A program made the translations under genes and the position numbers. A model generated the notes under the pieces. That model was not told where the DNA came from. It did no database searches and was given only the letters and a program-made list of their open reading frames with translations. Below are positions 5,753-9,831 of a stretch of 64,000 bases of DNA, in pieces. Within the stretch, counting starts at the first letter, position 1, and each line of letters opens with the position of its first letter. The stretch spans positions 5,568,001 through 5,632,000 of the forward strand of contig OY762007.1 in NCBI GenBank assembly GCA_963665115.1, in the 5' to 3' direction. The stretch comes from an uncultured Rivularia sp. (GTDB taxonomy: Bacteria; Cyanobacteriota; Cyanobacteriia; Cyanobacteriales; Nostocaceae).

Positions 5753-5792
5753 ATCAAAACATATTGTAGTGGGAGCATCTTGCTCCCTATTT

Positions 5793-5940
5793 CCCAATTA
5801 CCAATTCTCAATTACCAACTCTCAATTACCAATTACCAATTACCAATTACCAATTATCAATGCCCAATTATCAATGCCCAATTATCAATGCTCAATTCCC
5901 AATGCCCAATTATCAATGCCCAATTATCAATGCCCAATTT
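5793..5940. repeat. STRR-type tandem heptamer array (CCAATTA / TGCCCAA-TTATCAA)
   Basis: Directly visible tandem heptamers. Confidence 0.9.
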
Positions 5941-7113
5941 TTATTTCTTCCGCCTTCTTTTAATAACTTGCTCGCGTACTTGTTGATTTAATAAGTAACC
6001 AAAACCAGCTTTTTCTAAACGATGAACAAATTCATCATAATTATTTCCTAAAGCTTTCGCAGTCGCATCAATATTCCAATTATATTCGGCCAATTTACTA
6101 AGTAAGTAAACTCGCTTGGTTTGTGCGTTAGATAAACGGAAAGTTTTTAAATATTCTAATTCTCCATTCTCCCTAACAATCGCTTCTCCAATATGATTTT
6201 CTTCTTTAAGCTGTATATCGGTAATAAAACGCTGTAATCTAAATGGCCCGACATTGTAAACAATTTTAGATTGCAATTGACGATTTAGAATTCCTTCAGC
6301 CATGAAACCTTGAAAAGATGCCCAATCCGTTCGCATTTTTTCGATAGCTAATCTTAAATTTGCTAAATTATCAATCTCCGATTCATTTACTGATACATCC
6401 ATAGGAAAAGTTGTATCGTACAGCAAACCGTATTGATAAATTAATTCACCATAAAAATCTTCTAATAAACTCCTATGTAGCAAACGATAATCTTCTGGAG
6501 TGGGAACTACAAAAGCCGATGCTAAAGCTTCCGCGACAAAAATTAAAACTCCAACTTGTTTGGGATAAATTTCAAATACCCTTAAAGCATCTTCCAATCT
6601 AGCAATATAACGTCCTCCTACAGCAGTTTCGTAACGACAACCTAATCCATGTGAAAGAGCATACTTAGAATATTCGCTCCAAGCAATATCGGGGCCAGAA
6701 AAAAACATGGAAAGAAAACCTTCCATTGCCAAATGTAGCGGTAAGAATCTTAATTGATGATTTGACTCTCGTTTTCTCATACGATGCATTAAACGCACGC
6801 TAGCACAACCGGAATCAAGTCTTTTACCGTCAGATTTTGATTTCTGCATTTGTCCCCCGAAAGCAGCTAACGGGCTACCATCATCAGTCCAAGACATCAC
6901 TAACCCGTGGGGAACGTAGGAATAAGAATTAATATCTTTTTCTAAAGAAACAACAGTTAAATCTTCATCATAAGAACGTTTCATTAAACGTAAATCGCTG
7001 CGTACATTACGTCTGAGCAACGGCACAATTCGCACTGCACCGCGCACTTGAGAAGGAGCGATTTCTAATCCTTTTAAAGATATATCTGTTAGTAAATTCT
7101 TTTTTTGTGCCAC
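5941..7113 (-). CDS. ARPP-2-like domain protein with C-terminal Fis-like HTH
   Basis: N-terminus APSQVRGAVRIVPL and QVGVLIFVAEALASAF resemble the ARPP family as I recall it; C-terminal YNWNIDATAKALG is HTH-like. Family call not verified by search. Confidence 0.6.
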   Translation of the reverse strand: MAQKKNLLTDISLKGLEIAPSQVRGAVRIVPLLRRNVRSDLRLMKRSYDEDLTVVSLEKDINSYSYVPHGLVMSWTDDGSPLAAFGGQMQKSKSDGKRLDSGCASVRLMHRMRKRESNHQLRFLPLHLAMEGFLSMFFSGPDIAWSEYSKYALSHGLGCRYETAVGGRYIARLEDALRVFEIYPKQVGVLIFVAEALASAFVVPTPEDYRLLHRSLLEDFYGELIYQYGLLYDTTFPMDVSVNESEIDNLANLRLAIEKMRTDWASFQGFMAEGILNRQLQSKIVYNVGPFRLQRFITDIQLKEENHIGEAIVRENGELEYLKTFRLSNAQTKRVYLLSKLAEYNWNIDATAKALGNNYDEFVHRLEKAGFGYLLNQQVREQVIKRRRKK

Positions 7114-7147
7114 TTTTAATCAATTATCAATGAACAATTATCAATTA

Positions 7148-7525
7148 TCAGTTGTTGTGGTTTATTCTTGTCTTTTTTAGAATTGAAAAAAGTAATCTTG
7201 CAATTTCGTCTGCATCTTTATAAATACTTTGAAAAGCTTTGTCAGTAATATAATCTGTATCTTTGAGAAGACAAAGCCAATACTTGGTTTCGAGACACTC
7301 TTTATACGCTATGGATAATTTAGCGGAAAAATCGGCTGTATAAATAGCTCCGTTTGCTTCTGAAACATTAGCTCCAATAGATGTTCCGCTCCTCATCAGT
7401 TGTTTTGATAAAATATATTCTTTCTTTTTTTCGGTGAGATATTTATAAGCATTAACGGTTCTAATAGCGAACTTATAAGACTTATCATAAAGAACATTAT
7501 TACTAAAATAATATTGCTGACTCAT
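7148..7525 (-). CDS. Four-helix-bundle protein (23S rRNA IVS / Avd-like family)
   Basis: Signature KQLMRSGTSIGANVSEA...ADFSAKLSIAYKECLETKYWL. Confidence 0.9.
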   Translation of the reverse strand: MSQQYYFSNNVLYDKSYKFAIRTVNAYKYLTEKKKEYILSKQLMRSGTSIGANVSEANGAIYTADFSAKLSIAYKECLETKYWLCLLKDTDYITDKAFQSIYKDADEIARLLFSILKKTRINHNN

Positions 7526-7640
7526 ATATATATATATTAAAAATTACACAGTATTCCTTACTCCTTAATAACCTAAAACTATTAATATTTTATCGACCAC
7601 CATTAAACATTCACCGACAATTGATAATAGCTGATTTATG

Positions 7641-9092
7641 TTAACTACTTCTTGATAATTGATAATTGTTAATTGATAATTGATAACTGACTCTATTTGA
7701 TAAATATTCTTCCAACTCCGATAAAGAAGCAGAGCCATTTGCAAACTGAGCAAAACCCAACATTGTTGGTAAATCTTCAGCATCTCGCAATCCGACGGTG
7801 GGAATGTCGGGACATAATGAGCGCACGGAAAAGTCGTCGGAGTTGAAAACTGGATTGCAGTGAACTATTGAGGTACGGTTATTTATATCTAAACGCTTCC
7901 TAAAAATGCTTAATACCTGCGCTGCTCCGCAAGGTGGGTCATTTTCGCAACCATCGGATACAATCACTACTAAGTCTGCGCCCCATTCTAATGCATCTAA
8001 TAAAGGTGTTGCTAAGTCGGATTGTCCGCGAGGACTTACTTGCAATGGATCTGCTGGAGGTAGCGTCCAAAAATCTTGATATTCTTTAGCTGCGGTTTTT
8101 AACAAATAGTGAGTAGCTAAAGCGACACCCAATGGACGACGGCGCTTTTCGGAAGAACCATAACTGGAGTAGCTGCAATCTAAAACTGCTGCGACTCGCT
8201 GTAATTTCATTGGTGCTTTTCTCAATATTTTTTGAGCAGATTTTTCTAGAGCTTGATTGAGAATATCCCGTTTTTGTTTTCGAGTGTTCGCGGGTAAGGA
8301 AAGTATATATAGTGCTAATTTAGTTAAAGGTAGTCGAGCTAAATCTAAATCAATGTTGATTTTGGCGCTACAAGCCGCATTTTGAAACCGTAATTTTTCG
8401 TTCAAAGTCATCCTTTCTTGGATGCGGGTTAAGAAAACTTCGCGTTTAATTTTATGCTTTGCTGCTAAACCTTCAGCAACGGTAAATGGCAATTGATATA
8501 CAGCTTCAGCGCTAAAATGAGCTTGACGAAAGTTTTCAAATAATTCTGTTTGATATGCTTTTTGTTTCCAGTTCCGAAACAGAAAATTACTTAATTCTCC
8601 TTGAAGTTTCAAGTGTGCGTGAGTAACTATTGCCCGTACTTTAGAACGATATTTCACCGCATCAAAATCAATATTGCGGCGATAATTCAGATAATCGCGG
8701 GCGATCGCCCGACTGCGACGGTTGTTGATTTTTCGTTGTCTCAACTGCTGCAATACTCCCCAAGCCCGCTGGGTTGGTAGTTGTTGCAATGCCGAAGCAA
8801 TCAACGCGCCTTCTTCTTGCCGATGTTGTGCAGATGTATTTTTTCCCGTAGCCAATAAGTTTAAAATTATCTGTACTTGATTAAAATGATTAATTCCTGC
8901 TGCCAAAGTCCGAGCATAGAGCAAGCGGTAATTACCTAAAATATATTCATGCAGAAAATTAATTGAAACCTTCTGTCCGTAAGCATCATCATAAAATTCC
9001 CTCTGCCCCGTACAGGACAAACAAGCATTAATAAACATAACCAAATCTTCCCGCGCAACAACTTCGGCACGGTTATTTAACGCAGTATTCAT
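7641..9092 (-). CDS. TROVE/Ro60-like protein: basic helical N-terminal region plus C-terminal vWA domain
   Basis: vWA MIDAS elements VAAVLDCSYSS (DxSxS), GQSDLATPL and VVIVSDGCEND; Arg/Lys-rich helical N-terminal ~290 aa starting TGQREFY. This is the Ro60/Rsr architecture; the TROVE call is inferred. Confidence 0.65.
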   Translation of the reverse strand: MNTALNNRAEVVAREDLVMFINACLSCTGQREFYDDAYGQKVSINFLHEYILGNYRLLYARTLAAGINHFNQVQIILNLLATGKNTSAQHRQEEGALIASALQQLPTQRAWGVLQQLRQRKINNRRSRAIARDYLNYRRNIDFDAVKYRSKVRAIVTHAHLKLQGELSNFLFRNWKQKAYQTELFENFRQAHFSAEAVYQLPFTVAEGLAAKHKIKREVFLTRIQERMTLNEKLRFQNAACSAKINIDLDLARLPLTKLALYILSLPANTRKQKRDILNQALEKSAQKILRKAPMKLQRVAAVLDCSYSSYGSSEKRRRPLGVALATHYLLKTAAKEYQDFWTLPPADPLQVSPRGQSDLATPLLDALEWGADLVVIVSDGCENDPPCGAAQVLSIFRKRLDINNRTSIVHCNPVFNSDDFSVRSLCPDIPTVGLRDAEDLPTMLGFAQFANGSASLSELEEYLSNRVSYQLSINNYQLSRSS

Positions 9093-9292
9093 AGGGAGTA
9101 GAAAGTAGGGAGTTAGGAGTAGGGAGTTAGGAGTTGGGAGTAGTGAGTAGAAAGTAGTGAGTTGGGAGTAGTGAGTTAGGAGTTGGGAGTAATAAGTAGT
9201 GAGTTAGGAGTAGGGAGTTAGGAGTAGGGAGTAATAAGTAGGGAGTAGAAAGTAGGGAGTTAGGAGTAGGGAGTAGAAAGTAGTGAGTAGAA
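9093..9292. repeat. STRR heptamer array (GGAGTAG / GGAGTTA / AGTAGTG variants)
   Basis: Tandem degenerate heptamers filling the gap between the RNA hairpin and the TROVE-like start codon. Confidence 0.9.
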
Positions 9293-9332
9293 ACTACATA
9301 ATTAATCCAAAATCTAAAATTGAAGAGGGGGA

Positions 9333-9419
9333 TGCTGTTCGGGGAAAGGCGGCACGACTGGCTATGACCATTTGTAAGTGGGATTCGGAAGTCGCACCAT
9401 AGTCCCCCCGCGAACAGCA
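9333..9419 (-). ncRNA. Candidate structured ncRNA (Y-RNA-like) upstream of the TROVE-like gene
   Basis: GC-rich island. Minus-strand fold: UGCUGUUCG/CGAACAGCA (9 bp), bulged C, GGGGGG/UUUCCC, internal loop, GGUGCGACU/AGUCGUGCC (9 bp), 30-nt apical region. The G-U pairs only form on the minus strand. Confidence 0.6.
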
Positions 9420-9468
9420 AGACTGATAATAATTTGTAATTATTTGTAATGATTAATTATTAAGTTTA

Positions 9469-9831
9469 TTAAGCGTGGCAGAATTCACAATTAAACAGTT
9501 TCTGCAATAAATATTCAGTATATTCCTCAAGCTCAGTTACGAATACACCCGTTTCGCTTTCCGCTTCTGATGTTACCCAAATACCTTTTAAAACAACTTC
9601 AACCGACTCGGCATCACAACGGCAGAACTCTACTATATTTTCGCTGTTGATTTTATTTAGTTCACTAATGAAAAACGATGCTGGTACTAAAATAGAGGCC
9701 GTACTAGATTCAATATTAATACTGACAGTACTCCGTATACTTATAAGTACTCTGGTATTTATCCAGTCTTCTAAGGATTGTTTTAAGCAATCTAAGCTTA
9801 TCTTATCGTCGGTATAAGTAAGTTTTAACAT
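9469..9831 (-). CDS. alr0857-family cyanobacterial protein
   Basis: MLKLTYT...LEDWINTRV...STAS...VEVVLKGIWV...GVFV pattern recalled for this family. Confidence 0.7.
   Translation of the reverse strand: MLKLTYTDDKISLDCLKQSLEDWINTRVLISIRSTVSINIESSTASILVPASFFISELNKINSENIVEFCRCDAESVEVVLKGIWVTSEAESETGVFVTELEEYTEYLLQKLFNCEFCHA

Follow-up and report, generated by a model that had tools for sequence, protein, structure and literature searches.

The closest described systems to the one reported here are the particles formed by Ro60/Rsr proteins with Y RNAs. In the loci treated by PMC4201824 and PMC12135203 the Y RNAs are encoded 5' of rsr, with one or two in each locus; a GNCGAA motif has been proposed for Rsr binding (PMC4201824), and the role of the MIDAS, the adhesion site that depends on a metal ion, in Ro60 is stated to be unclear (PMC12135203). 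A second point of reference is the ARPP family, for which PMC9503650 reports a Cys and a Gln conserved without exception and proposes an action on ribose moieties. Here we analysed 64,000 nucleotides of DNA from an uncultured Rivularia sp. (contig OY762007.1, positions 5,568,001 to 5,632,000; below, the window), part of a genome of 8.7 Mb in one contig. On its minus strand a small structured RNA, a divergent Ro60-fold protein with a von Willebrand factor A (vWA) domain and an ARPP-2 protein follow each other in an order that is conserved among homologous loci. We see an about even chance that the three make up a module complete in itself and that their products likely assemble into a single particle, with RNA occupancy of the ring likely controlling a DNA-binding regulator. 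The three elements are:

9333..9419, minus strand: conserved structured RNA of 87 nt, with stem P1 carrying a bulged C/U, GGRACU, P2, the UUCCG loop strand, apical hairpin P3 and CCC
7641..9092, minus strand: divergent Ro60-fold protein of 483 aa, with a predicted helical ring (1-292) and a vWA domain (297-451), MIDAS intact
5941..7113, minus strand: ARPP-2 protein of 390 aa, with an ARPP-2 domain (11-289) and a predicted Fis/NtrC-type helix-turn-helix (HTH) at ~326-372; predicted partner of the vWA domain

A first-pass annotation of the window had described these elements and a four-helix-bundle gene as co-oriented, and all four were confirmed on the minus strand at the positions listed here and below.

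The RNA folds with an energy of -36.3 kcal/mol (z -3.5), equalled by none of 200 shuffled sequences; the GC-rich hairpin noticed in the first pass is a real structured element. Of 36 genome loci, 33 have it 5' of the ring gene and in the same orientation, and the three misses have only 3 to 386 nt of upstream DNA. A covariance model (R1) was built from 29 cyanobacterial copies, and the best 80 of 184 metagenomic loci found were scored with it. Full matches (E <= 3e-8) were present upstream on the same strand in 75 of these 80, at GC contents of 35-74%; of the other five, two are truncated at contig ends, another is without any upstream DNA, one gave a weak match (E 0.07) and one lacks the RNA. 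In a phylum-wide cyanobacterial sample R1 matched 13 of 150 genomes, all of them within the 16 of 151 that have ARPP-2, and a local search found the RNA in the other three. Most loci hold one copy (81 of 91), while seven hold two and three hold three. Ring and ARPP-2 genes overlap or are at most 10 nt apart in 57 of 105 pairs. Thus the conserved upstream hairpin and the order of RNA, ring and ARPP, both of which had been put up for checking, were found again in genome and metagenomic loci, and the order also in distant viral ones. In one genome (G116, contigs C41 and C47) the RNA and the ring gene stand at one contig end and ARPP-2 on another contig, by an assembly break or a split locus.

Covariation was assessed in a structure-blind alignment of 53 RNA copies, 52 of which were not model seeds. 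The bases pair in 91% of cells and 20 of 24 pairs have double-sided changes; no shuffle out of 500 reached this score, and slid controls gave 38-46%. Stem P1 has double changes in 7/7 pairs, and 50 of the 53 copies have C or U as its single bulged base. Invariant or nearly so are the bases G-x-GGRACU (5' strand core G-Y-GGRACU), UUCCG and CCC. Of the stem with a bulged C that had been annotated, the bulged closing stem therefore stands, but the bulge may be C or U and the invariant core differs. The claim of a Y-RNA-type system fared similarly, in that a conserved structured RNA lies upstream but, by the tests run here, does not belong to the YrlA or Y RNA family. A search of Rfam returned no match at gathering score and none meaningful at E <= 10, the YrlA model included; the same model scores YrlA-like RNAs beside canonical rsr loci. 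ARAGORN did not match the RNA, and it has no tRNA-like domain.

The 483-aa protein is predicted to be a Ro60-type ring closed by the vWA domain, over its whole length. A model computed from a 79-sequence alignment (predicted local distance difference test score, pLDDT, 95.4; predicted template modelling score, pTM, 0.92) gave 13 Foldseek matches at E <= 1e-3, and the 12 listed were all Ro60, Rsr or TROVE proteins with 12-15% identity and template modelling scores of ~0.60. The wide structural search placed Xenopus Ro60 (1yvp) first with a Z score of 18.1 and a root-mean-square deviation (rmsd) of 4.6 over 414 aligned residues; phage phiLo Ro60 (Z 16.8) and Deinococcus Rsr (Z 13.0) came next, and vWA-only matches did not exceed 12.0. 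Sequence searches of the PDB with the protein and its profile gave no match, so its placement comes from the fold comparison. Likewise, no Pfam or NCBIfam match was obtained at E <= 1, TROVE (PF05731) and vWA_Ro60 (PF25045) included; among the 79 homologues TROVE gave no listed row and vWA_Ro60 a single one (E 0.043). The proposed TROVE-plus-vWA fold was nevertheless borne out by the model, by Foldseek and by the match at Z 18.1.

The first pass had also read the protein as basic, helical and ending in a vWA domain with an intact MIDAS, which agrees with our data. Its N-terminal 295 aa have an isoelectric point of 10.2 (46 K+R vs 24 D+E), and the MIDAS (D305-x-S307-x-S309, S/T358, D380) is kept in 67/67 aligned homologues, with D305, S307, S309 and D380 unchanged and T or S at 358. 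The ring has a conserved basic patch made up of N123-N124-R125-R126-x-R128, K147-Y148-R149 and H158. Some homologues bear automatic 'TROVE domain-containing' names. The profile-profile probability against seven canonical Rsr proteins was 56%, which makes the family a distant branch. It comprises 584 representatives at 50% identity, with the closest homologues in Rivularia and Calothrix cyanobacteria and others in Actinomycetota-dominated clusters, a deltaproteobacterial metagenome-assembled genome and Stackebrandtia. One homologue (P0141) is 828 aa long with ~370 extra residues, possibly a fusion.

The 390-aa protein matches the ARPP-2 profile PF22549 with an E value of 2.9e-114 (381 bits vs a cut-off of 27) and is homologous to ARPP-1-type proteins (HHalign 96.9%). 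In multiple and profile-profile alignments of the clades, which are only 15-17% identical, the Cys and Gln of ARPP are replaced in ARPP-2, while they are kept in the ring-linked ARPPs of viruses and of a paralogous locus of the same genome. For residues 326-372 the top five structural rows were the DNA-binding domains of Fis/NtrC type (Fis, NtrC1, NtrX; Z 4.5-5.0). The body of the protein gave no fold match in the PDB, an absence that does not establish a new fold. The annotation as an ARPP-like protein thus held, and the C-terminal HTH annotated with it has a structural match at low Z. The accompanying suggestion that it takes the place of the usual RtcB-type neighbour did not hold in the sense of a functional stand-in, because the ARPP Cys/Gln are absent and the protein is predicted to bind the vWA domain physically.

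This partnership was predicted with a complex score of 0.68, while the best of three controls scored 0.00. Among 157 solved complexes 116 attained this mark, among 215 mismatched pairs 2, a calibration that is only roughly valid for the present alignments. Runs shared at least 89% of contacts with a partner pLDDT of at least 71. The predicted interface comprises S307, S309 and 357-358 of the vWA domain and residues 19-23, 181 and 183 of ARPP-2; the best-defined contacts are those of helix 247-264 against the vWA helices 361-369 and 386-401. Structure searches found no solved ARPP-like structure, so the result is unlikely to reflect memory of a like complex. Q22, F180 and E181 are invariant in 67/67 ring-linked ARPPs, and a Glu at the position of E181 occurs in 0/3 ARPP-1 proteins that have no ring gene within 1.5 kb. 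Thus the ARPP-2-HTH protein is predicted to dock on the vWA metal site of the ring. When ligands dock on a MIDAS, an acidic residue of the ligand completes the metal site, and E181 may be such a metal ligand.

A homologous ring (profile-profile probability 100%) is encoded at ten distant loci, nine of them on viral contigs and one on an Alkaliphilus plasmid, and an ARPP gene follows the ring gene in 10/10. These ARPPs lack the C-terminal part with the predicted HTH. In 6 of the 9 viral loci there are upstream rods in which G-x-A-C-U and U-x-C-x-G are invariant and are set apart by roughly the 10 nt seen in the bacterial RNA. The same six (L048-L050, L053-L055) have a tRNA-like cloverleaf inside a rod, at its apex; tRNA finders call the inserts odd tRNAs, with an undetermined or stop anticodon in two. 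At one locus a further rod, its third, follows downstream of the ARPP gene and has four small hairpins instead of the cloverleaf (L054:7510-7651). From a hand-picked alignment of 15 elements, the viral rods are likely homologous to the bacterial RNA. A motif built from both sets, hence partly circular, occurred at a density of 2.8 vs 0.11 per kb and in 7 of the 10 distant loci. With filters off, R1 gave the viral rods no significant score (best E 0.019 in 8 loci). A rigid rod-finding script missed the rods and gave matches near the shuffled rate. A strict RNA pattern run on the viral contigs returned 53 matches, none of which was confirmed by the covariance model, and these were set aside as chance. 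ROT/TROVE proteins have been reported from some jumbo phages, with no mention of ARPP in the available text of that source (PMC7824862).

Taken together, we favor a particle in which the ring likely binds the cognate 87-nt RNA via its conserved core, by analogy with Ro60 and Y RNA as described in PMC4201824 and PMC12135203. The RNA could be freed from the 5' end of the operon transcript or stay there, and may gate the access of other RNAs to the ring as Y RNAs do. The ARPP-2-HTH protein would be carried on the vWA metal site with E181 supplying the missing MIDAS metal ligand, and the signal would be damaged or misfolded RNA entering the ring. Because ARPP-2 has lost the catalytic motif and gained a predicted HTH, its output is likely transcriptional; transcription rather than the tethering of a nuclease would parallel the logic of RtcR, as far as this is set out in PMC7790460.

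Several observations weigh against this view. The loci are partly kin and duplicated, so the counts overstate independence. The RNA has no GNCGAAN0-1G motif near its 5' end, and UUCCG(A) sits in an internal loop instead. The complex output lists no pair of E181 with a metal or with a serine. Although the best HTH rows have an rmsd of 1.2-1.9 over 45-46 residues, a Z of 5 is low, no more than 7 of 67 ARPP-2 members match HTH_8 at E <= 0.1, and a column-consensus check saw no conserved operator upstream. No RNA-repair gene is linked in the ARPP-2 clade, RtcB included. The CCC of the RNA ends 15-75 nt before the start codon in 63 of 91 loci and a U-tract follows the RNA in only 38 of 108; with this short distance and so few U-tracts a cis-acting leader fits equally well.

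Such a leader is the main rival, though on the whole we consider it rather unlikely. The ring would bind the RNA as a 5' leader, perhaps by a switch between rod and pseudoknot, and so autoregulate, while the ring-ARPP-2 pair acts on other RNAs. The predicted promoter fits this idea. When 108 distinct upstream regions were compared, TAnnnT showed a sharp maximum between -21 and -18 relative to the core G, with 64 matches in the four positions, and the extended TGnTAnnnT has 38 matches there and at most two at any other offset. From these motifs the promoter is predicted to start the transcript at the first base of the RNA stem, in the window from the following element:

9426..9431, minus strand: predicted -10 promoter hexamer TATTAT, read from the sequence; the transcript would begin at about the first base of the RNA stem

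Scanning the region for sigma-70 promoters gave no more than chance expectation (21 vs 17.2), and none of the sequencing runs listed as holding the locus was of RNA. There is also no consistent terminator, tandem RNA copies could be multiple operators, and the conserved YGGGA has two possible pairing partners, the 3' CCC strand and, in the geometry of an H-type pseudoknot, UUCCG (97% of cells paired). Yet the alternative YGGGA-UUCCG helix has no double-sided change, which leaves it a lead only, and the viral cores do not keep it. The distance to the start codon reaches 1256 nt, another gene intervenes in two loci, and the rod leaves the start codon uncovered in most. Neither the viral third copy downstream of an ARPP gene nor the tRNA-like inserts of six viral loci are readily expected of a leader, and a place 5' of rsr is what PMC4201824 and PMC12135203 give for known Y RNAs as well.

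It is quite improbable that the module is an RNA-processing or repair machine, in which, as in RYPER, a nuclease or ligase would be held on the ring by the RNA while the HTH of ARPP-2 does no more than aid nucleic-acid binding. This is what characterised Ro60/Y RNA particles do (in those covered by PMC4201824 and PMC12135203), and in the distant clade the ARPP Cys/Gln are retained and the RNAs are tRNA-like. In the window genome, moreover, a paralogous divergent Ro60-fold gene and an ARPP-1 gene with Cys/Gln come directly after an RNA ligase gene (PF09414). This cluster (genome positions 4,070,274-4,078,921) also holds HNH, an alr0857-family gene, an AAA ATPase and two open reading frames (ORFs) that we take to be L7/L12-like and EF-Ts-like, and it looks like an RNA or ribosome repair operon; no RNA was detected at its ring-ARPP pair. 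In the ARPP-2 clade, however, the Cys/Gln are lost and the conserved neighbours include no repair gene, and a canonical rsr, which matches TROVE and vWA_Ro60, stands elsewhere in the genome. Very unlikely, finally, is a module for phage defence or of toxin-antitoxin-like kind, with the tandem RNA keeping the protein pair neutralised by a type III-like logic up to the time of infection. The patchy presence (16 of 151 genomes), the occurrence on four Nostoc plasmids, the one to three tandem RNA copies and the conflict-associated neighbourhoods from which PMC9503650 describes ARPP speak for it. Against it, PADLOC 2.0 gave no match at E <= 0.01 for the three window proteins, no effector domain was recognised, sequence conservation is high (43-44% mean column identity) and viruses carry a related pair.

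Beyond the particle we favor lies a wider proposal, which we put forward tentatively and with the balance somewhat against it. Bacteria and large viruses would share a second, independent Ro60-particle lineage with its own RNA class and an obligate ARPP that completes the MIDAS via its invariant Glu, and the bacterial HTH subunit would turn it into an RNA-gated sensor of RNA damage. Its RNAs would have the core RRACU-N10-UxCxG on a rod, with a hairpin at the apex in bacteria and a tRNA-like cloverleaf in viruses. If true, ARPP would be the first natural ligand for an Ro60 MIDAS.

Two further genes of the locus lie outside the conserved module:

7148..7525, minus strand: four-helix-bundle gene, 125-aa ORF (23S_rRNA_IVP / TIGR02436), a sporadic insertion
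9469-9831, minus strand: alr0857-family gene by family profile match, 5' of the RNA

The four-helix-bundle gene, which the first-pass annotation had counted as a module element, is a sporadic passenger: of the 36 genome loci 6 contain it, one of them in inverted orientation, and tblastn gave seven more matches elsewhere in the genome. The alr0857-family gene precedes the module in many closer cyanobacterial loci (23 of 36 genome loci) and not in the distant ones. Genes of this family stand 5' of both ring-ARPP loci of the window genome (window 9469-9831; genome 4,077,976-4,078,368) and are possibly linked to them. Clustering of the neighbouring ORFs of high-GC loci gave no broadly common gene, the largest cluster having 7 loci.

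The canonical rsr is preceded by four tandem tRNA-like elements (genome positions ~3,062,300-3,062,970) with the D arm first, the T arm last and a long stem with GACGAA/GACGCA replacing the anticodon loop. ARAGORN and the Rfam YrlA model missed all four; judged by their sequence they are likely Y RNAs arranged unlike YrlA.

A tract of short tandem repeats separates the RNA from the 483-aa ORF. Heptamer-type repeats of this kind, typical of heterocyst-forming cyanobacteria, are found between genes at 5770-5940, 7110-7145, 7650-7690 and 9095-9300 and yield spurious low-complexity ORFs; an ORF at 9127-9420 overlaps the RNA and extends into them. Within the RNA there is a run of six G at ~9404-9409. 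Three bases are absent at 9404 in the contigs of three of four sequencing runs, the contig of the fourth starts at 9404, and close relatives carry three G there. Probably the run is an assembly (homopolymer) error and three bases too long. Two close long assemblies (L001 and L008) have frameshifts in the same genes.

The analysis adds a conserved RNA family absent from Rfam 15 and a Ro60 branch that Pfam TROVE misses, so that Y RNA surveys via annotated TROVE genes, such as that of PMC4201824 as described there, would overlook the module. The role of the Ro60 MIDAS becomes testable with a co-encoded protein whose invariant Glu is predicted at that site, and if the HTH is functional there would be a route from a Ro60 ring to transcription distinct from RtcR. 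In the literature searched, to which key reviews did not belong, we found no description of an ARPP-TROVE-RNA module, and an earlier mention of the gene pair is possible.

The ARPP-2 protein matches PF22549 and is homologous to ARPP-1 (PF20208), but it lacks the Cys/Gln proposed as catalytic in PMC9503650 and has a predicted Fis-type HTH added; the contexts listed there (ARG systems, HIRAN, WYL, deacetylase) include neither TROVE nor RNA. Like RtcR, which is activated by damaged RNA according to the part of PMC7790460 concerned, it is, by prediction, an HTH protein linked to a Ro60/Y RNA-like locus. RtcR, however, is a CARF-AAA+-HTH protein that senses tRNA halves itself, whereas ARPP-2 lacks the CARF and AAA+ domains and would, on the prediction, dock on the ring. 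The next structural neighbours of the module's vWA domain are those of Rea1, whose MIDAS binds Rsa4/Ytm1, and the integrin I domains, but here the domain closes a predicted RNA-binding ring. The module also differs from RYPER in that its partner would, on the prediction, contact the ring itself, at the vWA domain.

With the particles of Ro60/Rsr and Y RNA (YrlA/YrlB, Yrn1; phiLo Ro60 with Yrl1/Yrl2) the module shares a predicted helical ring closed by a vWA domain with MIDAS, yet its ring is 12-15% identical to solved Ro60s and has neither Pfam TROVE nor vWA_Ro60. Its RNA, at 87 nt, is within the ~80-130 nt of Y RNA/YrlA, has the same long bulged closing stem and is likewise encoded 5' on the same strand within 4 kb, in one to three copies. 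Its UCCGAA, placed in the internal loop, resembles the vertebrate contact motif GGUCCGA as quoted in PMC4201824. Unlike YrlA it has no 5' GNCGAA and no tRNA-like domain, and unlike Rsr loci with RtcB/RtcA/RtcR the module has a dedicated ARPP partner in their place. Thus the ring of the module is Ro60-like by its predicted fold and outside the Pfam family, and the RNA is Y-like in position and outline only.

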